The notes beneath the pieces are model-generated. The model ran no database searches, was not told where the DNA came from, and was given only the letters and a program-made list of their open reading frames with translations. From Escherichia coli (GTDB lineage: Bacteria; Pseudomonadota; Gammaproteobacteria; Enterobacterales; Enterobacteriaceae), in assembly GCF_050920415.1 (NCBI RefSeq), contig NZ_CP169309.1: a stretch of 64,000 bases of DNA, one strand, 5' to 3'. How positions within the stretch are numbered: position 1 is the first letter of the stretch; the number at the start of each line of letters is the position of its first letter. Of the stretch, positions 5,657 through 44,746 are shown piece after piece. A program made the position numbers and the translations under genes.

Positions 5657-6520
5657 ATGAAACAACACCAATCGGCGGATAATTCTCAGGGCCAGCTTTA
5701 CATTGTACCGACGCCAATCGGCAATCTGGCAGATATCACCCAGCGTGCGTTGGAGGTTTTACAGGCCGTTGATCTGATTGCCGCCGAGGATACGCGTCAT
5801 ACCGGTTTACTGCTGCAACATTTTGGAATTAACGCCAGGTTGTTCGCCTTGCACGACCATAACGAACAACAGAAAGCCGAAACGTTACTGGCGAAGCTGC
5901 AGGAAGGGCAAAACATTGCGCTGGTGTCCGATGCCGGAACGCCACTGATTAACGATCCCGGCTATCATCTGGTGCGTACCTGCCGAGAAGCGGGGATTCG
6001 CGTGGTGCCACTACCGGGGCCGTGTGCTGCTATCACTGCATTAAGTGCTGCGGGTTTACCATCCGATCGTTTTTGTTATGAAGGCTTTTTACCTGCCAAA
6101 TCAAAAGGCCGCCGTGATGCGCTAAAAGCCATTGAAGCGGAGCCGCGCACGCTGATTTTTTATGAATCCACCCACCGTCTGTTAGATAGCCTGGAAGATA
6201 TCGTTGCTGTGCTGGGTGAGTCCCGTTACGTGGTGCTGGCGCGTGAGCTCACCAAAACCTGGGAAACCATTCACGGCGCGCCCGTTGGCGAGCTGCTGGC
6301 GTGGGTAAAAGAAGATGAAAACCGTCGCAAAGGCGAAATGGTGCTGATTGTTGAAGGCCATAAAGCGCAGGAAGAAGACTTACCCGCCGATGCCCTGCGC
6401 ACGCTGGCGCTGTTGCAGGCAGAACTGCCGCTGAAAAAAGCGGCGGCGCTGGCAGCAGAAATTCACGGCGTGAAGAAAAATGCGCTGTATAAGTATGCGC
6501 TGGAACAGCAGGGGGAGTGA
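5657..6520 (+). CDS. rsmI: 16S rRNA 2'-O-ribose C1402 methyltransferase RsmI
   Basis: 287-aa ORF divergent from lpoA; tetrapyrrole-methylase-like fold sequence. Confidence 0.9.
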
Positions 6521-6569
6521 TTACAGGCGTCGCAGCAAGAATAGAGCTGCAACGCCTACACCGGGCGAT

Positions 6570-7337
6570 TTAACGACGACACATCTCATCAATCATGCAT
6601 GTGAAATAGTTATGCAGCCATAAAAACGAAGCCGGGATAGCGGTAGAGACTTTAGCCGTGAGAAAACGTTCTGTCGCATCCTGCTTTCCTTCGCCAGTTA
6701 TCAGTAACAAAACTTCGCGGGCATTGAGAATATCCTTCAGGCCTAAAGTGATCCCACGAGTCACGGGACGGCCCGCGGTTTTTAACATCTCATGTTGTTG
6801 CGTTCTGGTATCAAGCTGGCTGATATGGCTTGCTGGTTGCAGACTTTCTCCCGGTTCGTTCAGCCCAAGATGGCCGTTTTTTCCCAATCCGAGAACGCAT
6901 AAATCCAGACCGCCTTTGCGCGCAATCAGGTTCGTTACCCGTTCGCACTCTGTCTCATTTATCTCTTCAGAGCGAAAGCTGATGAGCTGGTCTTCACGTA
7001 GCCCCAGCGGCTGCACGATATGCTGTTGAAGGAAAGTTTCGCAGGTGCCAGGCATTGTTAATGGCAGATCCACCCATTCGTCGAGCTTCACGAAGGTTAG
7101 TTGGCTGACATCAACCTGCTGCTGGTGGATTTTTTCTACCAGATAATGATACGTCAGTAATGGTGTGGCTCCGGTCGCCAGGCAAATCACGGCATCCGGT
7201 TTGCTACGGATCACGGCCAATAAATATTCGCTGGCACGTTCACTTAACGCCGTATAGTTTTCAACTTGTTGAAGGGTTTGCACAGGATGAAATTCCTTTA
7301 GTAAAGAGGCACCACCAGACGCAGTGCCTCGTTCCAT
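6570..7337 (-). CDS. agaI: Galactosamine-6-phosphate deaminase/isomerase AgaI (NagB family)
   Basis: 255-aa ORF with NagB/glucosamine-6-P deaminase-like sequence; last gene of the aga cluster; exact start not verified. Confidence 0.85.
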   Translation of the reverse strand: MERGTASGGASLLKEFHPVQTLQQVENYTALSERASEYLLAVIRSKPDAVICLATGATPLLTYHYLVEKIHQQQVDVSQLTFVKLDEWVDLPLTMPGTCETFLQQHIVQPLGLREDQLISFRSEEINETECERVTNLIARKGGLDLCVLGLGKNGHLGLNEPGESLQPASHISQLDTRTQQHEMLKTAGRPVTRGITLGLKDILNAREVLLLITGEGKQDATERFLTAKVSTAIPASFLWLHNYFTCMIDEMCRR

Positions 7338-11982: not shown

Positions 11983-13116
11983 TCAAAACGAAGCTAATTG
12001 ACCCTGAATCCAGATTTGTTGCACATGCAGTCCGCTATCCAGCGCAACGACGCTGGCGCGTTTGCCCGGTTTAAGTGATCCCAAAACACCATCAACACCC
12101 AGCATTCGCGCCGGATGCAGCGACGCCATATGGATGGCTTCCGCTGGCGTTACGCCCGTCAGCTCGACCATATTGCGAACAGCCGCATCAACAGACAGCG
12201 TACTGCCCGCCAGTCCACCGGACGCGGTACGGACAACGCCGTCGTGCATCTGCACCTCTTCACCACATAACGTATAGCGACCATCCGGCATCCCGGCTGC
12301 CTGCATCGCGTCGGTGATGAGCACGATTCTCTCTTTCGCACAGCAACAACACAGCGACATCGCCGCCGGATGTACATGATGACCATCGGCTATCAGTTCC
12401 AGCCAGGCGCGCTTGTCCGTTAATCCTGCGCCAACCATTCCCGGTTCGCGGTGATGTAAACCTGTCATCCCGTTATAGCAATGCACCAGGCCGTCGGCAC
12501 CAGCGTCAAACGCGGCGCGGGTTTGTTGCCAGGTTGCTGCGCTATGTCCCAGCATTACCCGCACGTTCTGCTGTTTAAGATGACGAATGGCTTGTAACGC
12601 GCCCGTTTTTTCCGGTGCCAGCGCCACCACGCGCAAGGTATGCCGTGAAACAGCAATCAATTGATCCAGCTCGGCAATTTCCAGCTCGCGAAACAGCTCC
12701 GGCGGATGTGCGCCTTTATTCTGCGGCGTGAAGTACGGTCCTTCGAGATAACTCCCCAGCACTTGCGCACCAGGTCCACCGCGCTGGCAGCGTAGAGCAA
12801 TACGTTCCAGCGCCGCATGAATGGTATTAAGCGGCGCGGTTACGGTAGTCGGCAACCAACTGCCGACACCTTCCCGTGCCTTGTGCATTGCCAGCTTGTC
12901 GAGCACATCCGGCGCGTCATCCATAACATCAACGCCCGCACCACCGTGTACATGGGTATCGATATAAGCGGGGCAGAGCAGTTCCGCATCGCGTTCAGCC
13001 ACGCCCACTGGAATCGGTTCGATTGCTGCAATTACACCGTCAGCAATATGCAACTGATGATCATCAAGCCAGCCCTCCTCAGTCAGCAGCCTTCTGGCGC
13101 GCAGAACGTGTGTCAT
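11983..13116 (-). CDS. agaA: N-acetylgalactosamine-6-phosphate deacetylase AgaA (NagA family), full length
   Basis: ORF 11983..13137 trimmed to the ATG at 13116, which forms an ATGA overlap with the agaF stop; amidohydrolase metal-binding motifs; intact, unlike the truncated K-12 allele. Confidence 0.85.
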   Translation of the reverse strand: MTHVLRARRLLTEEGWLDDHQLHIADGVIAAIEPIPVGVAERDAELLCPAYIDTHVHGGAGVDVMDDAPDVLDKLAMHKAREGVGSWLPTTVTAPLNTIHAALERIALRCQRGGPGAQVLGSYLEGPYFTPQNKGAHPPELFRELEIAELDQLIAVSRHTLRVVALAPEKTGALQAIRHLKQQNVRVMLGHSAATWQQTRAAFDAGADGLVHCYNGMTGLHHREPGMVGAGLTDKRAWLELIADGHHVHPAAMSLCCCCAKERIVLITDAMQAAGMPDGRYTLCGEEVQMHDGVVRTASGGLAGSTLSVDAAVRNMVELTGVTPAEAIHMASLHPARMLGVDGVLGSLKPGKRASVVALDSGLHVQQIWIQGQLASF

Positions 13117-13547
13117 ATTCCTTCCTCGACCGGACATTCTTCATGGCAGCGGCCTAACTCGTCCACCAGACTGGTCAGCCCACGGTGTCCACTCTCCAGC
13201 GCCTGTACACGGAATTCTTCACCGCTTAACCCTTCGCGCTCCAGCACCATTTCCAGTAACAGTTGCAAATTGGTGCCGGTGATCACTTCATAGCCCGGTT
13301 TTTGCATCGCCAGCGTTGAAGCCACGCGAAACGGTGTGCCGCCCAGCAAATCTGTCAGAAAAACAATGCCGTCTTCACAATCCAGTTTGGCAATGGCTTC
13401 TTCAAGCTGCGATGTAAGCAGCGCAGTGCTTGAGGTTTCCGGAAAATCAATGGCGATAAACTGCGACTGCTCGCCGAGGATTTGCTTCATTGCTTTTTCC
13501 ATGCCGCTGGCAAATCCGCCATGCCCTGTCAAAATAATACTTAACAT
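13113..13547 (-). CDS. agaF: PTS N-acetylgalactosamine EIIA component
   Basis: 144-aa ORF, mannose-family IIA. Confidence 0.85.
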   Translation of the reverse strand: MLSIILTGHGGFASGMEKAMKQILGEQSQFIAIDFPETSSTALLTSQLEEAIAKLDCEDGIVFLTDLLGGTPFRVASTLAMQKPGYEVITGTNLQLLLEMVLEREGLSGEEFRVQALESGHRGLTSLVDELGRCHEECPVEEGI

Positions 13548-13564
13548 CTAATACCTCATTGTAT

Positions 13565-14449
13565 TTAAAGGAAATGACAGAATTTACCGACGATGCCAAG
13601 AACCACGGTAACCGCAATCAGGCGCAGCGGACTCCAGCCGCGGCGTACCAGCCAGAACATGGTCAGGGTGTAGACCAGCGGTAAGAAGGCAGGCATCAGT
13701 TTGTCGATAACGTCAGCCTGCAGCTTAACCACTGCGTCGCCCGCCGTGATTTCCAGCGTGGTGCTTAAACGAACATAGGTTGCCACCAGCGCGCCGATCA
13801 CCGTCATCCCAACGATAGACGCTGCATGGCCGACTTTTTTGGTATTCGCTTTAATGAGTGGGATCGCCGCCACGCCCATGCGGTAAGCATAATGCGCCAG
13901 ACCAAAACGCAGCCCCAGGTGTACCACGTTGAACAGCACAATAAAGACGACTGCGCCAAGAATAGAGCCTTGCAATGCCAGACTGGCACCAATCCCGCCA
14001 CAAATCGGCAGTAACGTTAGCCAGAACATGGCATCGCCAATCCCGCCGAGCGGCGCACCGACGGCAATTTTGGTGCTCTGAATACTGTTAACGTCCTGCT
14101 TAGAACGCTCCATCGCGAGGATAATGCCAATAACAAACGTCACCAGAAATGGATGGGTATTGAAGAAACCCATATGTCCCTTCATGGCGCGCGCCAGGTC
14201 GCGTTTATTAGTGTGGATCTTTTTCAGAGCAGGCAGCAGACCGTACAACCAGCCGGAAGCCTGCATACGCTCGTAGTTAAAAGACGCTTGTAACAGCATG
14301 GAACGCCAGGCGACGCGGTTGATATCTTTTTTTGTTAGCTCCGCGCCAATGCTCTGATCTTCGTATACGTTTTCATTGACGCCTGTCAGTAGTGTCTCTT
14401 CATTTTCGCTGACGTTCGGCAGGGTGGTTTGATTAGATGCCATCTTCAA
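13565..14449 (-). CDS. agaE: PTS N-acetylgalactosamine EIID component
   Basis: 294-aa ORF, paralogous to agaD; exact start uncertain. Confidence 0.82.
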   Translation of the reverse strand: MKMASNQTTLPNVSENEETLLTGVNENVYEDQSIGAELTKKDINRVAWRSMLLQASFNYERMQASGWLYGLLPALKKIHTNKRDLARAMKGHMGFFNTHPFLVTFVIGIILAMERSKQDVNSIQSTKIAVGAPLGGIGDAMFWLTLLPICGGIGASLALQGSILGAVVFIVLFNVVHLGLRFGLAHYAYRMGVAAIPLIKANTKKVGHAASIVGMTVIGALVATYVRLSTTLEITAGDAVVKLQADVIDKLMPAFLPLVYTLTMFWLVRRGWSPLRLIAVTVVLGIVGKFCHFL

Positions 14450-15212
14450 ATTCCTCTTTCTGTGCCGCAGGTTGAGTCGGTTCAGGAGATTTACGCAGCA
14501 GGTCGATCAGCGCCATCGCCAGCGCGGCGGCAGCAATAGCCAGCACCGGTAACTTGAGCCAGGCGGCGGCAACGAAGCCCAGGATGAAGTAGGGGATATA
14601 GACGTTTTTCATCATGATTTTCAGCAGCACGGCAAAACCGATTGCTGGCATGATGCCGCCCGCGACGCCAAGGCCGTCGATTAACCGTTGCGGCAGGACA
14701 TCAATGATGGTTTTTGCATGCTCCGCGCCGAAGTAGATAGGCAGGAAAGCGCAGAGAAAATAGAACGTGCCGAGTGCCAGCAATGCCAGATAGTTCACGC
14801 GTTCAATGCCGCGAGTATCGGCGTTCTCCGCCATCCGGTCGCAGCGGGACATCACGCCAGACATCACCGAGAACAGGAAGGTAATCCCCATCTGTACTGC
14901 GACAGCGAAAGGTACGGCGACACCGACCGCGACATCCGGTTTCACACCAGTAGTAATGGCAAATGCCGTGCCGACGATAGTTCCGATAATCACGTTAGGC
15001 GGCTGTGCGCCCGCCAGTGGTGCCAGCCCCATCCACACCAGTTCCAGCGTACCGCCGGTTAAAATACCGGTATGCAGATCGCCAAGCACCAACCCAACTA
15101 ACGGGCCGAGGACCACCGGGCGGTGCATATGGGTCAAGCCGTTAAACATATCCAGGCCAGCGATAAAGGCGATAATGCCCAACGCAAATGCCTGCAACAG
15201 ACTGATTTCCAT
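14433..15212 (-). CDS. agaW: PTS N-acetylgalactosamine EIIC component
   Basis: 259-aa hydrophobic ORF paralogous to agaC; full length. Confidence 0.85.
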   Translation of the reverse strand: MEISLLQAFALGIIAFIAGLDMFNGLTHMHRPVVLGPLVGLVLGDLHTGILTGGTLELVWMGLAPLAGAQPPNVIIGTIVGTAFAITTGVKPDVAVGVAVPFAVAVQMGITFLFSVMSGVMSRCDRMAENADTRGIERVNYLALLALGTFYFLCAFLPIYFGAEHAKTIIDVLPQRLIDGLGVAGGIMPAIGFAVLLKIMMKNVYIPYFILGFVAAAWLKLPVLAIAAAALAMALIDLLRKSPEPTQPAAQKEEFEDGI

Positions 15213-19059: not shown

Positions 19060-20631
19060 TCAAGTCACCGGTGCCGGGTTAAACACCGCCAGCTGGTTAT
19101 GCAGTCCCCATTGATCTGAGAAGGTTTTCTTCTTCCCGCTGGCGACGTCGAGAATAAAATGGAACAATTTCCAGCCCACCTCTTCAATAGTTTCTTCGCC
19201 GGTAGCGATGGTGCCCGCATTAATATCCATTAAATCAAACCAGCGGTTCGCCAGCTCGGTGCGGGTCGCCATTTTAATGACGGGTACCGCCATCAGGCCG
19301 TACGGCGTACCACGGCCGGTCGTAAACACTTGCACGGTAATCCCCGAAGCCACCTGTTGCGTGCCACAGACAAAATCGCTGGCTGGCGTCGCAGCGTAAA
19401 TTAATCCGCGTTTAGTCGGGCGTTGACCGGGCGACAGCACTTCAACAATTGCACTTTTACCCGATTTAGCAATGGAGCCGAGCGCTTTCTCCACCACATT
19501 TGCCAGACCGCCTTTCTTGTTGCCCGGCGAAGGGTTGGCGCTGCGGTCGGTTTTTCCCATATTGAGATAGTTATCGTACCACTCCATCTCCTCCAGCAGC
19601 CGTTTGCCGACCTCTTCGTTCACTGCGCGCGGCGTCAGCAGATGGATCGCGTCACGCACTTCTGTGACTTCCGAGAACATCACCGTTGCACCGCAGCGCA
19701 CCAGTAGATCAGATGCATAACCCACGGCTGGATTTGCCGTTACGCCAGAAAACGCATCGCTGCCACCGCACTGCATGCCGACAACCAGTTCTGAAGCCGG
19801 ACAGGTTTCTCGCTGACGTTGATTCAGTTTTTGTAGATGGCGTTCGGCGACCTGCAAAATATCCTCGACCATGGACTGAAAACCGACATGCTTTTCATCC
19901 TGCAAACTGACAATGCTGGCGCTTTCTACTGGAATAGCTTGCACATCATCCGTTCCAGTCAGCAGGCGTTCAGGCTGCAACTTTTCACAACCCAGACCAA
20001 TCACCATTACTTCGCCGCCAAAGTTAGGGTTCAGCGAAATATTGTGAATGGTACGAATAGGCACAACTGCCGCCGGTGCGTTAATCGCCACGCCACAACC
20101 GTACAAATGATTCAGCCCCACCACGCCATCGACGTTCGGGTATTTCGGTAGCAGATCGCGTTCAATGATTTTTACTACATAGTCCACCACGCCTGCCACA
20201 CAGTGGACGCTGGTGGTGATGCCGAGCAGGTTTTTGGTGCCCACGCTGCCATCGGCATTGCGATAGCCCTCAAAGGTGTATCCTTCCAGTGGCGGTAAGG
20301 GGGCCGGGACTTTAGTTGCCAGTGGCAGCGTGTGTAACGGTGGCGCTTCCGGTAGTACAACCATTGATTCGTCGATCCAGCTTCCGCGTGGGATTGCGCG
20401 CACGGCGTAACCAATCACTTCACCATAACGAATAATTTCACCATTAGCCGGAATGTCCAGCAATGCGACTTTATGCCCCTGGGGAATATGTTCAATTAAT
20501 TCCAGCCCATCCGGAAAACGCGTTCCTGCTTTCAGGCCATTATCATTAACAATAATTGCCACATTATCTGTGTCGTGAACTTTTATATAAAACGCAGTTG
20601 GCGTTTCTTGTCTGATTTCGATGTTGGCCAT
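19060..20631 (-). CDS. garD: Galactarate dehydratase GarD
   Basis: 523-aa ORF, SAF-domain plus altronate-dehydratase-like sequence; divergent from garP. Confidence 0.9.
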
Positions 20632-21005
20632 TGTGCAATATTCTCCAGCCAGGGGTTATTAAAATGAGGACCTGGTCTCATTTAAAAATAAATGACTTCA
20701 TTGGGTGAAATAAGAATGTCAGGAGTTTAAACGCAGAAATGTGATCAATGTCAATCATTTCAGGGATTGCAGTGCCGCCCGGCAGGGTAAAGAGCAAATC
20801 TGTGCTTTAGCGCGCAACCTTATGTGCATATGCTCAAAATAATATTTAAATAGTAATAATTAAATTAGCATTTGCACAATGATTATTATTCTCTCGCTGC
20901 TTATACTAATTCCTGAGTTCATTGTCGTAACGGCATAAATAAAACTCATAAATAACACCTTCCCCATAATAATAAAAATCAGCATAAGTACCCGAGGTAA
21001 ATAAA
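20632..21005. promoter_or_regulatory. AT-rich divergent garD / garPLRK promoter region
   Basis: 374-bp AT-rich intergenic region between divergent operons. Confidence 0.5.
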
Positions 21006-25320: not shown

Positions 25321-25697
<377 letters not shown>

Positions 25698-25709
25698 CTT
25701 CAACGAAAA

Positions 25710-25736
25710 CCCGCCAGTGCAAACTGGCGGGTTTTT
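25710..25736 (+). terminator. Rho-independent terminator downstream of rnpB
   Basis: Hairpin CCCGCCAGT-N6-ACTGGCGGG followed by TTTTT. Confidence 0.85.
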
Positions 25737-25820
25737 GCTTTTGAGGAGGGTGGTCGGAAAGATGAACGTCTTATCTGGCCTACAAAACAACGAAAATTTA
25801 ATATATTGCACAGAGGAAAT

Positions 25821-25849
25821 GTAGGCCTGATAAGCGTAGCGCCTCAGGC
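25821..25849. repeat. REP-like palindromic unit
   Basis: GTAGGCCTGATAAGCGTAGCGCCTCAGGC, REP-type sequence. Confidence 0.6.
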
Positions 25850-25968
25850 AATTTTGTGTTTATCATCAGTCTCGAACCTGCTTCGGCAAGCTTTTACTTT
25901 TGGTGCAGACGGAAAGATGAACGAGTATCTAAGCTATTAATAATAGACTTTGCAAGAAATCATTACAT

Positions 25969-27138
25969 TTATATTTCATTTAAAAGATCGTAATCATACG
26001 TATATTCTTTGCTAATAAAACGACACTCGTTGAAGCTAAATTCATCGTCTGAAAAGGAATTGTCAACAGAATCTCTCTCTTCCTCCAGGCTATTATCTGA
26101 AAGCAAGTCGTTTGAGTTAGTGTAATCTAGGTTGTAATCGACAGTATAATTAATTTCTGGATCGGTTTGGTAATCATTTTTTTTGACGCAATCATATTCT
26201 TCAATAATTTTGTCGATATAATCATATGCTTTTTCTAATGAGAAGTTTTTCATCTCTGGTAATTTAACTTTGCTCAAATAATTATTAATTTTTGAGGAAT
26301 TTTTATATATGCTTTTTGTTAATTCTTTTTCTAATTTGTCTGTTATATTTGCTGTTGGTATGGATTTTATAATCGCATATCTCATGATTTTTAATTGATC
26401 TTCGGTTAAATCTCCAAGCTCATTTAAACAACTTTCGACAAAGTTGATTTTTTCTCTGGAATAATCATCGCTGATACTTGTTAACGCTGGGGTGATTTTT
26501 AATAAAGAATTCCATGAGATAGTACCATTGTGTGTCGAACGCATAAAATTTATATTGTACATATTGGTTTTAGTAAACTTTGTTGCAAACAATGTAAAGG
26601 GATCTAAAGTCGCGTAAGCCATATGTTTATTTGAAAAATCATAACCAGTTAAATCGACGTTATGCAAGTCCAGATAGGATAAATCTATTACGTCGCCTGC
26701 TCCAGAGCTAAAGATTACATTTAGTCTTCTGATTTCATTATAAATTTCCTTTAATGAACAATTTATGTTCATGATGTCTGTTGAAATTTTTTTGTTATTT
26801 AACGGTTCACAAATTATAAGTTCGCAAGTATTGTCTGATCGTTGCGTTATTTGGGCATTATAACCTAAAAAGTCTATGCGAAGAGACGAGTTATTATAAA
26901 GTATTACATTTTTTAAGTATGCTAATTCTTGTTGAAAATCACCATCGATAATACATGTTCCACCTGGTTGCAACGCGCAGATTAACGTGAGCATTTGATT
27001 AGAAGTCTGTTTTAGTTTTACTACACCTGGTGCTAGTGCTTTGAGGTCATTTATTATGGGGGTTTCAGGAATGTCATTCATTTTTATACGTACTAAATCA
27101 TTACCTAAGTCATTACCTATTGATGAAACCGGGAACAT
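25969..27138 (-). CDS. yhaC: Uncharacterized protein YhaC (pentapeptide-repeat-like central region, acidic D/Y/E-rich C-terminus)
   Basis: 389-aa ORF in a strongly AT-rich segment; synteny between rnpB and tdcR. Confidence 0.75.
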   Translation of the reverse strand: MFPVSSIGNDLGNDLVRIKMNDIPETPIINDLKALAPGVVKLKQTSNQMLTLICALQPGGTCIIDGDFQQELAYLKNVILYNNSSLRIDFLGYNAQITQRSDNTCELIICEPLNNKKISTDIMNINCSLKEIYNEIRRLNVIFSSGAGDVIDLSYLDLHNVDLTGYDFSNKHMAYATLDPFTLFATKFTKTNMYNINFMRSTHNGTISWNSLLKITPALTSISDDYSREKINFVESCLNELGDLTEDQLKIMRYAIIKSIPTANITDKLEKELTKSIYKNSSKINNYLSKVKLPEMKNFSLEKAYDYIDKIIEEYDCVKKNDYQTDPEINYTVDYNLDYTNSNDLLSDNSLEEERDSVDNSFSDDEFSFNECRFISKEYTYDYDLLNEI

Positions 27139-27159
27139 TATTTTATCCTTTTTAAATAA

Positions 27160-27729
27160 TCAATGAGAATCATGATTAAAATGATCTGGTGAAAAAAAGA
27201 GAATTTGCCAACAATCTGAAACATTGTCAGTTTTATTAAAATGATTAAATTCCGTTAAGATAACTTCTTTTTGCGTGAACTTTGCGCAAAACTTAAAAAT
27301 TGTCTCCTTGATACACTCCAGATCTTTTCTATTGATGGCTGAACAAGTACATTTTTCGCCAAAAGGTGAAAATGTGCCTACATCTAAAGTTTGTATTATA
27401 TAATCATCATTTACTCCTGTAGAAATATCTATGATGAATGGACTTCTATTTTCCGGTTGGATTCGGATCATTACAGAAGAAACATCACCTTTATAGACAT
27501 TCAATGCAGTAATCGCAGATAATATTCTCCGCAATTCATTGCTTATGCTGTAAATTTCATTAACGTCATTTGTCGATATAATCTCGGCAAATTTTATTTT
27601 TACCTTCCAATAATCAATGTTTCTATTATAAGTGTTAACAGTTTCGTACATTGGTGGTATCGAAGGGGGTAAAAAATGTGAAACCGAATAACCTTTCATT
27701 GATGCCTGCCTTGTCTTCATGACAAACAA
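27160..27729 (-). CDS. yhaB: Uncharacterized protein YhaB
   Basis: 189-aa ORF 21 bp downstream of yhaC, AT-rich; synteny. Confidence 0.7.
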   Translation of the reverse strand: MFVMKTRQASMKGYSVSHFLPPSIPPMYETVNTYNRNIDYWKVKIKFAEIISTNDVNEIYSISNELRRILSAITALNVYKGDVSSVMIRIQPENRSPFIIDISTGVNDDYIIQTLDVGTFSPFGEKCTCSAINRKDLECIKETIFKFCAKFTQKEVILTEFNHFNKTDNVSDCWQILFFSPDHFNHDSH

Positions 27730-27937
27730 TAATCAATGCTTATTTTCCTTGCACGGTTCGCTCACAACTATCAAAAAACGCTCAATTACCCGGCATTACA
27801 GTCAACGAAGCAAAATTCTGTGGTCTACAACGATGTAAAGCACAACGAAAATCCTCCTTGTTCTCTTATTCTGATCGTATAGCGATGAACATCAATTATT
27901 CGTTTTGTGATCCTCAACACAAAATGCTATTTAGTAA

Positions 27938-28312
27938 CTATGGTGACAGTAGAAACGAGGGGAAACGATTGCATTCACAAAATGACGTCCTGTAAGAAGG
28001 GTGAAAGTTGATGTTAATCAATTGTTCGAGATGATCAATATCTGTATTCGAAATTTTAAAACATTGATAAAATAAATGTTTGCCCTCCAACAAATAGCGA
28101 GAAAAAATGTGACGTGCCGCATTATTTATCGCTGAAAATGATTTATTTATAATAAAATTTGATAACTTGCTCATAAAATTTAACTCAAAATTTGCCTGGT
28201 AATTATCCGCTAATTGCTTGAAATATGGTCGCGGCTGCTTTTTTTTATTAACCACATAACGAATGATGTTATCGCCATAAAATATGGTTATCCCTGTCAT
28301 TTTTTTTGACAA
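27938..28312 (-). CDS. tdcR: Putative small regulator TdcR (start uncertain, true product may be shorter)
   Basis: AT-rich ORF divergent from tdcA; position matches tdcR. Confidence 0.5.
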   Translation of the reverse strand: MSKKMTGITIFYGDNIIRYVVNKKKQPRPYFKQLADNYQANFELNFMSKLSNFIINKSFSAINNAARHIFSRYLLEGKHLFYQCFKISNTDIDHLEQLININFHPSYRTSFCECNRFPSFLLSP

Positions 28313-28488
28313 AAATCAGGGTTTATGCTGATTTATATACTTTAACTTATTGATATATAAAAGAATTTAATTGATACAGTGATATCCAGAAAAGTATTGA
28401 AAGTTAATTTGTGAGTGGTCGCACATATCCTGTTCATTTCATTTTGATACACTTCATGCCGTCAATGAGGTTATTAACGTAGGTAGTT
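28313..28488. promoter_or_regulatory. tdc operon promoter region (tdcR-tdcA divergent intergenic)
   Basis: AT-rich 176-bp region immediately upstream of tdcA. Confidence 0.5.
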
Positions 28489-29427
28489 ATGAGCACTATT
28501 CTTCTTCCGAAAACGCAGCATCTGGTAGTCTTTCAGGAAGTCATTAGAAGTGGCTCTATCGGCTCGGCTGCAAAAGAATTAGGGTTAACTCAACCCGCCG
28601 TCAGTAAAATCATTAACGATATTGAAGACTATTTTGGTGTGGAATTAGTGGTGCGGAAAAATACCGGTGTAACATTAACACCTGCCGGTCAATTGTTACT
28701 CTCCCGTTCCGAATCCATTACCCGTGAAATGAAAAATATGGTTAATGAGATAAGCGGTATGTCTTCTGAGGCGGTGGTGGAAGTCTCATTCGGTTTTCCT
28801 TCATTGATTGGTTTTACTTTTATGTCCGGGATGATCAACAAGTTCAAAGAGGTGTTTCCGAAAGCGCAGGTTTCTATGTATGAAGCGCAACTGTCTTCGT
28901 TCTTACCGGCAATCCGCGACGGTCGACTGGATTTTGCGATTGGTACGTTAAGCGCAGAAATGAAGCTTCAGGATTTACATGTTGAGCCGCTGTTCGAGTC
29001 CGAGTTTGTGTTGGTAGCCAGTAAGTCCCGAACATGCACCGGCACCACCACGCTGGAGTCGTTGAAGAACGAACAGTGGGTGTTGCCACAAACCAATATG
29101 GGGTACTACAGCGAGCTGCTCACCACGTTACAAAGAAATGGCATCAGTATTGAAAACATCGTTAAAACCGACTCAGTTGTGACAATTTATAATCTTGTTC
29201 TCAATGCTGATTTCTTAACTGTAATTCCTTGTGATATGACATCACCTTTTGGTTCAAATCAATTTATTACTATTCCGGTTGAAGAAACATTACCTGTGGC
29301 ACAATATGCCGCGGTATGGTCGAAAAATTATCGTATTAAAAAAGCAGCATCGGTTTTGGTGGAATTAGCCAAAGAGTATTCATCTTATAATGGGTGTAGA
29401 CGAAGGCAATTAATTGAAGTTGGTTAG
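28489..29427 (+). CDS. tdcA: LysR-family transcriptional activator TdcA
   Basis: 312-aa ORF, N-terminal HTH (LysR type). Confidence 0.9.
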   Translation: MSTILLPKTQHLVVFQEVIRSGSIGSAAKELGLTQPAVSKIINDIEDYFGVELVVRKNTGVTLTPAGQLLLSRSESITREMKNMVNEISGMSSEAVVEVSFGFPSLIGFTFMSGMINKFKEVFPKAQVSMYEAQLSSFLPAIRDGRLDFAIGTLSAEMKLQDLHVEPLFESEFVLVASKSRTCTGTTTLESLKNEQWVLPQTNMGYYSELLTTLQRNGISIENIVKTDSVVTIYNLVLNADFLTVIPCDMTSPFGSNQFITIPVEETLPVAQYAAVWSKNYRIKKAASVLVELAKEYSSYNGCRRRQLIEVG

Positions 29428-29525
29428 TTATTTGTTTTTATTTAAACATAAATAATCCACCTGTCTGTTTTGCAGGTGTCGGTTACGGTTACCTACATAT
29501 TTAATTCAGGCTAAGAGGTTTTATA

Positions 29526-30515
29526 ATGCATATTACATACGATCTCCCGGTTGCTATTGATGACATCATTGAAGCAAAACAACGACTGGCTGGGCGAATT
29601 TATAAAACAGGCATGCCTCGCTCCAACTATTTTAGTGAACGTTGCAAAGGTGAAATATTCCTCAAATTCGAAAACATGCAGCGTACCGGTTCATTTAAAA
29701 TTCGTGGCGCATTTAATAAATTAAGTTCACTGACCGATGCGGAAAAACGTAAAGGTGTAGTGGCCTGCTCTGCGGGCAACCATGCGCAAGGGGTCTCGCT
29801 CTCCTGCGCGATGCTGGGTATCGACGGTAAAGTGGTGATGCCAAAAGGCGCGCCGAAATCCAAAGTAGCGGCAACGTGCGACTACTCCGCTGAAGTTGTT
29901 CTGCACGGCGACAACTTTAACGACACTATCGCTAAAGTGAGCGAAATTGTCGAAACGGAAGGCCGTATTTTTATCCCACCTTATGATGATCCGAAAGTGA
30001 TTGCCGGTCAGGGAACGATTGGCCTGGAAATTATGGAAGATCTCTATGATGTCGATAATGTGATTGTGCCAATTGGCGGTGGCGGTTTAATTGCTGGTAT
30101 TGCGGTAGCGATTAAATCAATTAACCCGACTATTCGTGTTATTGGCGTACAGTCAGAAAACGTTCACGGCATGGCGGCTTCTTTCCACTCCGGAGAAATA
30201 ACCACGCACCGAACTACCGGCACCCTGGCGGATGGTTGTGATGTCGCCCGCCCGGGTAATTTAACTTACGAAATCGTTCGTGAATTAGTCGATGACATCG
30301 TGCTGGTCAGCGAAGACGAAATCAGAAACAGTATGATTGCCTTAATTCAGCGCAATAAAGTCGTCACCGAAGGCGCAGGCGCTCTGGCATGTGCTGCATT
30401 ATTAAGCGGTAAATTAGACCAATATATTCAAAACAGAAAAACCGTCAGTATTATTTCCGGCGGCAATATCGATCTTTCTCGCGTCTCTCAAATCACCGGT
30501 TTCGTTGACGCTTAA
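29526..30515 (+). CDS. tdcB: Catabolic L-threonine/L-serine dehydratase TdcB (PLP-dependent)
   Basis: 329-aa ORF with PLP lysine motif SFKIRGA. Confidence 0.92.
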
Positions 30516-40232: not shown

Positions 40233-40337
<105 letters not shown>

Positions 40338-42285: not shown

Positions 42286-42642
42286 TTAATTTGAACCAAA
42301 CTTCGGATCGTTTCCGTAACGATTGCTGCCAGAATTGCCTTCTAAACAGGCAAATACAAACAGAACTAACCAGCCAATGACCGGTACCAGATAGAGAAGC
42401 GCCCACGCACCTGAACGGTCAGTATCGTGCAGACGACGAACGCACAGAGCAATGACCGGAATGATTGTTGCTGCCAGGTAAATGAGAGAAAGGAATGGAA
42501 ACTCTAAACCTAAAATCAATTGAATGACATTGATAATAGCGCCGACGATGGCGTTAATCAGAGTAAACATCCAGTACTCTTTACGACGTGCACGACCAGA
42601 GAAACCAACATAATTTTTTAATACGGCTAAATACCACTGCAT
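42286..42642 (-). CDS. yhaI: Inner membrane protein YhaI (DUF805)
   Basis: 118-aa ORF; paralogous to yhaH (shared YLKVLKNYVGF..GRARRKEYWMF motif). Confidence 0.85.
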   Translation of the reverse strand: MQWYLAVLKNYVGFSGRARRKEYWMFTLINAIVGAIINVIQLILGLEFPFLSLIYLAATIIPVIALCVRRLHDTDRSGAWALLYLVPVIGWLVLFVFACLEGNSGSNRYGNDPKFGSN

Positions 42643-42883
42643 AAAAACATCCCTTTAATTAAAAGTTGCGAAAGTCTATTCCGGGGATGGAGTAAATGCT
42701 ATTCGTATCTTTCTTTTTCGGATGTTATAAAGGTTTTGATATTTAAGATAAATACATGGCCGTTTTTTATATGTAATTTATATAACGACATTGAAATAAT
42801 TTAAATAAACATTAGTAGATTATTTATTCATCAACATGATGATAAAAGCCGGATGAGTCAGACATCCGGCGAGGAGATTTGTT

Positions 42884-43249
42884 TTAAGGTTCCAGTTTTG
42901 GATCTGGTCCAAAGCGGTTTTCGCCTGGCGTACCCGCCTGACAGTTAAAGACGATGATAATAAGCCAGCCGATAAACGGGATTAAGAACAACAGTGCCCA
43001 CCATGCCGAGCGGTCGGTGTCGTGCAGGCGGCGGAACTGAACTGCCCACCATGGTAAAAACACCAGAATACCGTAGATTGTCGTCAGGATGCCTTCGCCA
43101 CCGGCACGTTGCCAGCCTAACATTTTATCCAGTAGCCCCAGCACGAACGTAAAGATGATGTTGACCAGAATAAACATCCAGTACTCTTTGCGCCGCGCAC
43201 GACCCCGGAAACCGACATAATTTTTTAGTACTTTCAGATACCAGTCCAT
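42884..43249 (-). CDS. yhaH: Inner membrane protein YhaH (DUF805)
   Basis: ORF 42884..43270 trimmed to MDWYLKVLKNY... Confidence 0.85.
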   Translation of the reverse strand: MDWYLKVLKNYVGFRGRARRKEYWMFILVNIIFTFVLGLLDKMLGWQRAGGEGILTTIYGILVFLPWWAVQFRRLHDTDRSAWWALLFLIPFIGWLIIIVFNCQAGTPGENRFGPDPKLEP

Positions 43250-43380
43250 TTTTGCCTCAATTTTGCTCAATCACTTGTTTTTAAAGCAGCAAATTAAGAA
43301 TAGACGTGAATGAAATGGCAGTAAATATTATCTCGATGAATTAATAAGGCGCTGTGAAGGATAAGGGCAAGCGCAAAATT

Positions 43381-43490
43381 GCCAGATGCGCTACGCTTAT
43401 CTGGCCTGCGCGGTCATTGCAATATATTGAATATACAATGTTTTGTAGATCAGATAAGGCGTTCACGCCGCATCCGACATGAACAACACG
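43381..43490. repeat. REP/BIME element
   Basis: GCCAGATGCGCTACGCTTATCTGGCCTGCG and GATAAGGCGTTCACGCCGCATCCGACA REP units. Confidence 0.85.
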
Positions 43491-43532
43491 CACTTAGCTA
43501 ATTATCAGAGGCACCTCGTAAGGTGCTTTTTT

Positions 43533-44540: not shown

Positions 44541-44565
44541 AAACGAGGAGCGTTTCTCCTCGTTT
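44541..44565 (-). terminator. Hairpin with T-tract (minus strand) between the REP cluster and the yqjG RBS
   Basis: AAACGAGGAG-N5-CTCCTCGTTT stem-loop. Confidence 0.5.
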
Positions 44566-44587
44566 GAGACTGATGGCAAACGCAAAA

Positions 44588-44690
44588 CTGCCTGATGCGC
44601 TATGCTTATCAGGCCTACGAGGTTTCTGCAATGTATTGAATTTGCATGTTTTTGTAGGCCGGATAAGGCGTTCACGCCGCATCCGGCATG
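44588..44690. repeat. REP/BIME element
   Basis: CTGATGCGCTATGCTTATCAGGCCTAC and GTAGGCCGGATAAGGCGTTCACGCCGCATCCGGCA. Confidence 0.85.
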
Positions 44691-44716
44691 AACAACGCGC
44701 ACTTTGTCAACAATCT

Positions 44717-44746
44717 GAAACGAGGAGTGTTCCCCCTCGTTTTTTA
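44717..44746. terminator. Hairpin with flanking A- and T-tracts downstream of yqjF (possibly bidirectional)
   Basis: GAAACGAGGAGTGTTCCCCCTCGTTTTTT. Confidence 0.5.

Follow-up and report, generated by a model that had tools for sequence, protein, structure and literature searches.

A deeply divergent yhaB-yhaC haplotype in the AT-rich block between rnpB and tdcA of Escherichia coli

Introduction

The genes yhaB and yhaC of Escherichia coli are still without an assigned function and are among the youngest genes of this species; they have been described as a homogeneous young operon belonging to phylostratum 9 (PMC12218254). Here, we report on their counterparts in a 64,000-nucleotide stretch of E. 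coli DNA (contig NZ_CP169309.1 of assembly GCF_050920415.1), which is called the window in the following. Together with tdcR they form an AT-rich block at positions 25900-28490, between the RNase P RNA gene rnpB and the activator gene tdcA. The closest described relatives are YhaC (NF007262) and YhaB (PF27690) of strain K-12, which have the same position, orientation, pentapeptide centres and C-terminal motif as the copies in the window. Both genes are assigned to this known, uncharacterised E. coli family, of which the copy in the window is a strongly divergent member. A first-pass annotation of the window, which was made from the sequence alone, had pointed to the block, and its interpretation proves largely right though incomplete; it missed the most unusual feature, i.e. 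that the block represents a deeply divergent haplotype, unlike that of K-12 and specific to one lineage.

Several more distant systems are suitable for comparison as well. Pentapeptide-repeat proteins (PF00805/PF13599), for example Np275/Np276 (2J8K) or MfpA/Qnr, have in common with YhaC tandem units of five residues with a central L, F or M and D or N at position i-1, as well as a conservation pattern in which inward positions are fixed and outward ones vary. However, YhaC contains only ten such units inside 389 amino acids (aa), and its flanking regions are unrelated to these proteins. Its repeat is far too short to mimic B-DNA in the manner of the eight-turn MfpA/Qnr dimers. The effectors PipB and PipB2 of Salmonella pathogenicity island 2 (SPI-2) are similar in size to YhaC, and in both cases a non-repeat N-terminus of approximately 150 aa is followed by the repeats. 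Moreover, the C-terminus of PipB2 ends with -ENI and that of YhaC with -NEI, both being acidic/aromatic. In contrast, no homology between YhaC and PipB/PipB2 is detectable outside the repeats, and the repeat region of YhaC is much shorter. Finally, the H-NS-bound promoter islands of K-12 are AT-rich like the block in the window, whereas their occupancy is known for the K-12 alleles alone.

A divergent haplotype within conserved flanks

The base composition of the block clearly deviates from its surroundings. Its GC content is 0.318 compared to a mean of 0.513 (standard deviation 0.022, minimum 0.457) in 560 other stretches of 2,591 nt, which corresponds to z = -8.9, and nowhere else in the 64-kb window does the GC content of a 1-kb stretch fall below 0.40. 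The GC content at third codon positions is also low, with 0.29 in yhaC, 0.26 in yhaB and 0.34 in tdcR compared to 0.44-0.54 in garK, tdcA and tdcB. These values bear out the earlier statement that the block is much more AT-rich than its flanks, and the gene content between rnpB and tdcA (yhaC, yhaB, tdcR) had been given correctly as well.

In a base-by-base comparison, the DNA is 65-90% identical to K-12 inside the block and 95-100% in the flanks. The edges of the divergent part are sharp, at approximately 25700 on the left side, past which the identity drops from 98-100% to 65-84%, and at approximately 28400 on the right. The same contrast is found among the encoded proteins, where YhaC, YhaB and TdcR share 67%, 77% and 85% identity with K-12, respectively, while GarK, TdcA and TdcB reach 98.7-100%. 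When positions 25700-28490 were used as megablast query against 5,426 complete E. coli genomes, identities of at least 99% were found in 12 genomes, of 95-99% in six and of 80-90% in 5,393; the haplotype of the window is present in 18 of the 5,426 genomes. Exactly these 18 carriers, among them MFDS1022581 and 2013C-4282, reach an identity of 99% or more to the window in their left flank (garL-garK), compared to at most 98.3% in all others, and the flanks of the four carriers that were fetched are 99.3-99.5% identical to the window. The 18 carriers are a single deep-branching E. coli lineage.

The divergence was quantified as synonymous substitutions per site (dS) and as the ratio of non-synonymous to synonymous substitutions (dN/dS) by the Nei-Gojobori method, comparing the window with K-12, MS14384 and 95NR1. 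For yhaC we obtained dS values of 0.63-0.65 and dN/dS of 0.29-0.33 (0.65 and 0.30 in comparison to K-12), for yhaB 0.45-0.52 and 0.24-0.27 (0.52 and 0.24 in comparison to K-12), and for the combined flanking genes garK, tdcA and tdcB 0.09-0.12 and 0.02-0.04. The dS of yhaB and yhaC in the window haplotype hence amounts to four to seven times the flank dS. Among the common haplotypes, the corresponding ratios are smaller, i.e. one to two times for yhaB and 2.7-3.6 times for yhaC, which argues that the copy in the window is over-diverged beyond the effect of a faster local clock. In the flanks, E. coli differs from both E. ruysiae and Escherichia sp. E4930 by a dS of 0.40-0.44; the yhaBC haplotypes are hence approximately as distant from each other as these species are at the neighbouring genes. 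A weaker excess of divergence was observed in the tdcR part of the block, where the window and K-12 are 89.3% identical compared to 97.4% between K-12 and MS14384. Furthermore, one database protein (P0007, 389 aa) is a recombinant YhaC, whose N-terminal half is of the common type and whose C-terminal half is of the window type, showing that the haplotype classes can recombine. When the substitutions were polarised to see whether the block drifts towards or away from AT, 47 AT-to-GC and 25 GC-to-AT changes were counted, but the 22%-divergent outgroup biases parsimony in exactly this direction.

An older and a probably younger part of the block

A segment of approximately 2 kb (25772-27855) is missing in E. 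ruysiae and in Escherichia sp. E4930 according to local alignments. In E. coli, this segment (GC content approximately 0.325) comprises a REP-like element, yhaC, yhaB and a yhaB leader of approximately 155 nt. In E. ruysiae (L015-L018) and E4930 (L019), the locus is arranged as tdcA, tdcR, a spacer of approximately 50 nt, the rnpB-3' repeats, rnpB and garK. On the right side, the shared sequence ends at 27856 in both species (L016 for E. ruysiae, L019 for E4930), while on the left side it reaches to 25771 in E4930 and up to 25937 in E. ruysiae. Here the rnpB repeats blur the alignment and leave an uncertainty of approximately 170 nt for the left end of the insert. No scraps of yhaB or yhaC were found at the sites of these two outgroup lineages with a word size of 7. 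As tdcR is retained at the empty site, the AT-rich block is a composite of an older tdcR part and an E. coli-specific insert of approximately 2 kb. The comparison across species that had been proposed in the first-pass annotation therefore gives a divided picture, since the insert is missing in both sister species and the tdcR part is present there. TdcR is accordingly distributed more widely than YhaB and YhaC (the outgroup tdcR loci are located at 6001-6219 in L016 and 6001-6279 in L019).

In a collection of 5.8e9 proteins, all homologues of YhaC and YhaB belong to E. coli, Shigella or "Escherichia sp." wherever an organism is named, and the YhaB homologues, all tagged with PF27690, occur only in E. 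coli/Shigella. A hidden Markov model (HMM) profile built from 18 YhaC alleles found one full-length cluster and fragments among 1.84e9 cluster representatives. Apart from matches restricted to the repeats, neither the 5.8e9-protein search nor this YhaC profile search revealed any YhaC or YhaB homologue outside Escherichia. Phage homologues were not found either, and the four matches labelled as plasmids turned out to be three chromosome-sized records and one E. coli record of 354 kb. A scan of the GTDB species representatives, which needs exact peptide patterns and is hence no proof of absence, returned only two loci from metagenome-assembled genomes, assigned to "Collinsella" and "Bacteroides"; both were rejected as contamination with E. 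coli DNA, being 93% and 99.6% identical to K-12, respectively. A direct repeat, GATGAAC, at the ends of the insert was likewise dismissed, since it is not conserved in K-12. Among the open reading frames (ORFs) of the window, none between garK and tdcA encodes a transposase or integrase, in agreement with the earlier remark that no integrase or insertion sequence (IS) flanks the block. Taken together, no mobility signature or donor was found among the ORFs between garK and tdcA, phages, true plasmids and non-Escherichia proteins. A horizontal origin, as the first-pass annotation had supposed for the AT-rich DNA, would fit the composition of the insert and the clean empty site in two sister species.

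YhaC, YhaB and their probable operon

The yhaC-like coding sequence (25969-27138, minus strand) encodes a protein of 389 aa with an isoelectric point (pI) of 4.6. It matches NF007262 end to end (E = 5.1e-175), with residues 1-389 aligned to positions 1-395 of the 395-position profile. However, the score of 582.1 bits does not reach the curated cut-off of 765 for this equivalog family, which explains the label "hypothetical protein" in RefSeq/PGAP; strain MFDS1022581, which carries an identical stretch, has both ORFs annotated in this way. Hence, annotation pipelines lose the YhaC family in this deep E. coli lineage because its alleles score below the curated cut-off. Compared to K-12, YhaC is colinear over its full length with a single gap of six residues, and its tail is six residues shorter in the window. 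The reading frame has zero in-frame stops before the terminal one, while 5,000 shuffles contained 31 on average and at least 14, and the other five frames of the yhaC DNA contain 17-45. A Shine-Dalgarno sequence, AAGGA, is located 8-12 nt 5' of the start. No signal peptide, hydrophobic leader or membrane segment was visible by eye in YhaC.

The centre of YhaC is occupied by ten consecutive units of the A(D/N)LXX type at residues 149-198 (26545-26694, minus strand), including DLSYLDLHNVDLTGYDFSNKHMAYATLDPF at residues 152-181. The unit centres read L L L F M L L F M F with an exact spacing of five residues, and the i-1 positions read D D D D H T T K N N. Among 16 near-full-length YhaC alleles, the centre is invariant in all ten units, i-1 in seven and i-2 in five, compared to three for i+1 and two for i+2; at i-2, only swaps between I and V or between A and T occur. 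A right-handed quadrilateral beta-helix, in which the centre and i-2 point inwards and the remaining positions are exposed, would predict such a pattern. The pentapeptide-like stretch noticed before is hence borne out as ten real units, and we regard the core as a genuine but short pentapeptide-repeat domain with a predicted length of approximately 2.5 beta-helix turns. Beyond YhaC itself, the profile matches only repeat proteins, over approximately YhaC residues 140-215. The matches to large multi-repeat proteins have E-values from 1e-9 to 1e-3, and all seven that were inspected are pentapeptide-repeat proteins. In pairwise BLASTP, the protein P0160 is 42% identical to YhaC over 50 aa (E = 2e-8). 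When only the single YhaC sequence was used, the Pfam pentapeptide HMMs gave non-significant values (Pentapeptide_4, E = 0.77; Pentapeptide, E = 7.4).

Some further similarities were rejected. The Pfam-A matches to Pox_VLTF3 (E = 0.0025) and F_bP_aldolase (E = 0.14) are taken as chance matches. A match of YhaC residues 32-142 to the N-terminal part of FolD (PDB 5zf1, E = 0.0054) was discarded because the catalytic Lys motif is lost and also because no FolD proteins are among the 70 matches in the search of 1.84e9 proteins. The BLASTP alignment with the protein P0139 runs 30 residues past the repeats toward a region that looks TIR-like by eye, which is treated as coincidence since the rest of YhaC shows no similarity to this protein. 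An AlphaFold2 model of YhaC from an 18-row alignment had a predicted local distance difference test (pLDDT) value of 31.8 and no confident segment; the region between the repeat core and the tail is predicted to be helical with low confidence only.

The C-terminal part of YhaC consists of two sections with different conservation. Residues 326-378 (26005-26163, minus strand) form a variable acidic tail rich in Tyr, Asn and Ser, in which only 14 of 53 positions (26%) are invariant and dN/dS reaches 0.64-0.67. It is followed by the terminal motif YTYDYDLLNEI-COOH at residues 379-389 (25972-26004, minus strand), in which nine of the 11 residues are the same in every allele class (consensus YxYDYDLLNxI-COOH; invariant end also EYTYDYDLLNEI). 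The last 64 residues together (326-389) have a pI of 4.05, with 19 D/E compared to 3 K/R and 6 Y, in line with the acidic C-terminal tail described in the first-pass annotation. As a lead only, the C-terminus resembles the so-called Y-acidic motifs, which have been reported for the C-termini of JIP1, TorsinA and PipB2 (LFNEFYSENI) (bioRxiv 10.1101/322057). The repeat core and the terminal motif provide concrete handles for experiments on YhaC.

The yhaB-like coding sequence (27160-27699, minus strand) encodes a protein of 179 aa with a pI of 5.7 and five conserved Cys residues, which shares 77% aa identity with K-12 YhaB. It ends 21 nt 5' of yhaC, and owing to this close spacing both genes probably form one operon. 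As previously remarked, YhaB is without a recognisable motif: neither the Pfam-A library used nor NCBIfam or PADLOC gave a match, PHROGs gave only non-significant ones, and a YhaB profile found nothing in the PDB at E <= 10. The AlphaFold2 model of YhaB, based on a five-row alignment, had a pLDDT of 34.9. A database protein of 547 aa (P0014) combines a YhaC match with the YhaB Pfam tag, probably because YhaB and YhaC were fused or read through in this call.

Selection and dispensability

Both yhaB and yhaC are real coding genes under sustained moderate purifying selection, since dN/dS values of 0.24-0.33 persist over a dS of 0.5-0.65. This selection is approximately ten times weaker than that on the flanking genes. 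The yhaB-yhaC operon is clearly dispensable. About a fifth of the matching genomes (1,124 of 5,413) do not reach 80% coverage of the block. In strain MS8345, two internal deletions have left scraps alone, and partial matches of the MS8345 type were found in five of 30 rows taken at even intervals from the genome ranking. Moreover, ET210 carries an IS3 element in yhaC (L004 2685-3913) together with a frameshift in yhaB, yhaC is frameshifted in FDAARGOS_946, and many YhaB protein clusters have frameshifted C-termini. In strain A41, an IS621 element is located between rnpB and yhaC (L008 3829-4809). The locus is hence an insertion target, though the copy in the window is clean. When 92 E. coli genomes from wastewater were scanned for positive selection, yhaC was among the top genes (PMC9110714). 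This result fits its high diversity, although purifying selection that is mainly relaxed is what the pairwise dN/dS values indicate for yhaC.

Regulatory sites and H-NS

The tdcR ORF (27938-28174, minus strand) encodes 78 aa in the window and matches NF008507 with 146.9 bits (cut-off 100), residues 1-72 being aligned to profile positions 1-72; it is longer than the 72 aa of K-12 TdcR because of a changed stop. In the first-pass annotation, tdcR had been listed among the uncharacterised genes, which does not hold, since tdcR is a named regulator and belongs to the older layer of the block. Its dN/dS is 0.44-1.1 in every comparison, including those between species, and the DNA may be constrained as regulatory as much as coding sequence. 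The between-species dS of tdcR is 0.14-0.24, lower than the 0.40-0.44 of the flanking genes.

A CRP site, TTTTGTGTTGAGGATCACAAAA (27903-27924, minus strand), is located approximately 205-225 nt 5' of the yhaB start codon and is identical to the K-12 site, for which an in vitro CRP footprint, ttTGTGTtgaggaTCACAaaa, at 3267646 was assigned to "yhaB" (PMC12871828). Five E. coli haplotypes carry the site without any change, while the surrounding DNA has diverged. The site is kept in E. ruysiae and shows one change in E4930; hence, it predates the insert. Inside tdcR, the consensus palindrome TTGAT-GTTA-ATCAA (28008-28021) matches an FNR target, AACAATTGATTAACGTCAACTTTT, found by chromatin immunoprecipitation (ChIP) in K-12 and listed as "yhaB" (PMC1802558). 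At this site, TTGAT-N4-GTCAA is present in K-12 and in the further E. coli that were compared; the predicted half-site is perfect in the window because A replaces the G of K-12. The divergent tdcR-tdcA regulatory region (28175-28488) has an identity to K-12 of 86% at 28300-28399 and of 98% from 28400 onwards. It contains a CRP-like consensus sequence, TGTGAGTGGTCGCACA (28410-28425), in the conserved tdc core promoter, which we take to be the tdc promoter site based on the consensus and on published knowledge of this promoter. IS5 insertions in the tdcA/tdcR intergenic region repeatedly rise under selection in the mouse gut (PMC7518454).

In K-12, H-NS was detected at a 706-bp promoter island in yhaC (3266734) in "all studies", i.e. 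three ChIP-chip sets, and at the 477-bp tdcA/tdcR island (3265097) in two studies; both islands were flagged as predicted foreign DNA (PMC3661553). H-NS silencing as proposed in the first-pass annotation is thus backed by occupancy in K-12, but these data concern the K-12 allele and not that of the window. H-NS motifs occur with a density of 5.3 per kb in the block compared to 1.45 per kb elsewhere in the window, which equals the expectation from AT-richness alone. A simple promoter scan was uninformative, with eight sigma-70-like sites compared to 13.6 in shuffles.

A scenario for the block and its alternatives

In our opinion, it is on balance probable that the block consists of two layers, the younger of which is a lineage-restricted, weakly constrained operon that is present in the window as an old haplotype and encodes YhaC as an adaptor or decoy. 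The older layer (approximately 27856-28400) would comprise the AT-rich tdcR and tdc-regulatory DNA common to E. coli, E. ruysiae and E4930. The younger layer (approximately 25772-27855) would be the AT-rich yhaB-yhaC insert, restricted to E. coli/Shigella and placed between the CRP site and the rnpB repeats. This insert would have been acquired or have arisen on the E. coli branch and would be kept mostly silent via H-NS, as in K-12. If transcribed at all, yhaBC may be expressed when the silencing is relieved under cyclic AMP (cAMP)-CRP/FNR conditions, i.e. in the anaerobic, sugar-poor gut, like the tdc operon. Fast local divergence could then have moved the block beyond homologous recombination, while the flanks were still homogenised, resulting in an old haplotype inside young flanks. 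We think that such a recombination barrier best explains this arrangement. As to the proteins, the data support no more than a soluble acidic protein that has a short beta-helix surface and a conserved C-terminal motif of the docking type, together with a small partner. YhaC might act as a protein-binding adaptor or decoy that uses the beta-helix surface and the C-terminal motif as contacts, with YhaB as its partner, but we can propose this only with low confidence.

A number of points weigh against this scenario. An import of the haplotype from an unsampled relative predicts the same pattern as the recombination barrier. A gain in E. coli is about as parsimonious as one clean loss long ago in a common ancestor of E. 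ruysiae and E4930; the flank dS between these two species is 0.35, i.e. they are slightly nearer to each other than to E. coli. Furthermore, the CRP site need not serve yhaB, because it is older than the insert, and all regulatory and H-NS evidence for the block comes from K-12 alleles. Finally, the domain picture of YhaC outside the repeat core is drawn from the sequence, the structure model being of low quality (pLDDT 31.8), and the role as adaptor or decoy is a guess from the architecture.

Alternatively, YhaC could be a remnant type III effector of the PipB2 kind, with an N-terminal region for secretion and chaperone binding, the pentapeptide beta-helix, and a Y-acidic motif that would dock to host tetratricopeptide repeat (TPR) proteins such as kinesin light chain, and YhaB could be its chaperone. 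In the past, both would have relied on the E. coli type III secretion system 2 (ETT2) or on the locus of enterocyte effacement (LEE), and they would now decay where the injectisome is gone. We regard this as unlikely, although several observations are in its favour. Pentapeptide repeats are present in the effectors NleL/EspX7, EspY3, PipB and PipB2 (PMC3013003, PMC6313403, PMC5570926), and the layout of PipB2, with an N-terminal part of approximately 150 aa, repeats and a functional C-terminal LFNEF motif (PMC5570926), is alike. The invariant YhaC C-terminus EYTYDYDLLNEI is of the same flavour as the PipB2 terminus LFNEFYSENI, and the sole NCBIfam match of YhaC apart from its own family is the SPI-2 effector PipB (residues 151-202, E = 0.015). 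However, the latter similarity is confined to generic repeats, since NF011744 scores only 14.4 bits compared to a cut-off of 274, and the YhaC profile gave no effector-domain matches in the PDB. Similarly, the presence of a small, mildly acidic partner gene 5' of yhaC would fit a chaperone, but YhaB shows no CesT-type or other chaperone signal in Pfam-A, NCBIfam or the PDB profile search. An effector locus would also fit DNA that is AT-rich, H-NS-bound in K-12, fast-evolving and often pseudogenised. On the other hand, no type III secretion genes are encoded in the window, and dN/dS values of 0.2-0.3 persist in comparisons including K-12, which suggests a cell-autonomous role. K-12 itself is not known to have a working injectisome. 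A wider form of the effector reading, in which yhaB-yhaC would be an unrecognised backbone chaperone/effector pair docking to host TPR proteins, with haplotypes of approximately species-split age resulting from host-driven diversification, appears less likely still; if true, it would provide a candidate backbone substrate for the degenerate ETT2 or for the LEE.

Comparably improbable is that the block is functionless decaying DNA, in which AT-richness and divergence result from mutation pressure without selection. The deletion of the operon in about a fifth of the genomes, its repeated frameshifts and IS insertions, the binding of H-NS in K-12 and a dN/dS approximately ten times that of the flanks could all be understood in this way, and the sole K-12 phenotype in the literature searched is a single match in a cell-density screen (PMC3668246). 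Nevertheless, both ORFs have remained open and colinear across a dS of 0.5-0.65, in DNA for which chance alone predicts 31 stops, their dN/dS is 0.24-0.33 and not 1, and the conservation tracks the register of the beta-helix and leaves the terminal motif invariant.

The weakest alternative, to which we give little credit, is a conflict gene pair with anti-phage or antagonistic function, where a long-lived balanced polymorphism, kept up by frequency-dependent selection, would account for the deep haplotypes and the frequent loss: it would accommodate a haplotype divergence as old as species splits within young flanks, the place of yhaC among the top genes of the wastewater scan, the clustering of variation at exposed beta-helix positions and in the tail, the recombinant allele P0007, and the TIR-like C-terminus seen by eye in P0139, the best single-stretch pentapeptide match, but PADLOC-DB 2.0 contains no family matching YhaC, YhaB or TdcR at E <= 1, the PHROG matches of YhaC and YhaB are non-significant (E >= 0.011), Pfam-A and NCBIfam revealed neither a nuclease, NTPase or TIR domain nor any other effector domain in the two proteins, the rare haplotype occurs in a single lineage and does not segregate across backgrounds, contrary to balancing selection in a recombining population, and an overall dN/dS of 0.3 is purifying and not diversifying.

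For the two-layer scenario, the block provides a small, clean example that weakly constrained, H-NS-bound DNA can escape the species-wide homogenisation. The present understanding is not overturned by it, and the block is an evolutionary curiosity rather than a new kind of system. What is new, namely the empty site in two sister species, the different ages of the parts of the block, its deep haplotype, the validation of the repeat core and the terminal motif of YhaC, is useful, though findings of this kind are no surprise.

Neighbouring genes and further differences to K-12

The gene order around the block is garK (+), rnpB (+), yhaC (-), yhaB (-), tdcR (-), tdcA (+) and tdcB. The left neighbour of rnpB is garK (24062/24143-25288, plus strand). 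The conserved left anchor rnpB (25321-25697, plus strand) matches Rfam RF00010 in full length with 319 bits and is 99.5-100% identical to other E. coli copies. Its terminator is followed by one partial rnpB-3' repeat unit (25698-25766, plus strand), and the divergence begins just 3' of this unit. The conserved right anchor is tdcA (28489-29427, plus strand), encoding a LysR-type activator with a protein sequence 100% identical to K-12 TdcA.

The rnpB-3' tandem unit of approximately 113 bp varies in copy number, with one copy in the window (25648-25766), approximately three in K-12 (L001 19643-19875) and two to three in E. ruysiae (L016 6344-6624); the 344 extra bases that K-12 has after rnpB consist of these units. 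Just 3' of rnpB, at approximately 25762-25872, lies a dispersed repeat resembling repetitive extragenic palindromic (REP) sequences or bacterial interspersed mosaic elements (BIMEs), containing TGTAGGCCTGATAAGCGTAGCGC. Relatives of it at 40257-40337, 43366-43494 and 44562-44721 were noticed as cross-matches in the BLAST comparison with K-12. Minor AT-rich spots, with a GC content of 0.36-0.37 over 500 nt and far smaller than the main block, are present at 20501-21000, 29251-29750 and 42501-43000, which correspond by their K-12 position to the divergent garD-garP intergenic region, the tdcA-tdcB spacer and the surroundings of yhaH/yhaI, respectively.

Two further differences to K-12 were found at larger distance from the block. 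At 5657-7337, rsmI (5657-6520, plus strand) directly adjoins agaI (6570-7337, minus strand), while the corresponding K-12 interval holds the chaperone-usher fimbrial operon yraH-yraI-yraJ(-yraK), which has no counterpart in the window. In the aga cluster (12541-14837), approximately 2.3 kb are without a K-12 counterpart, and K-12 has truncated pseudogenes at this place (L001 8182-9106); the lineage of the window hence seems to keep aga genes that were lost by K-12.

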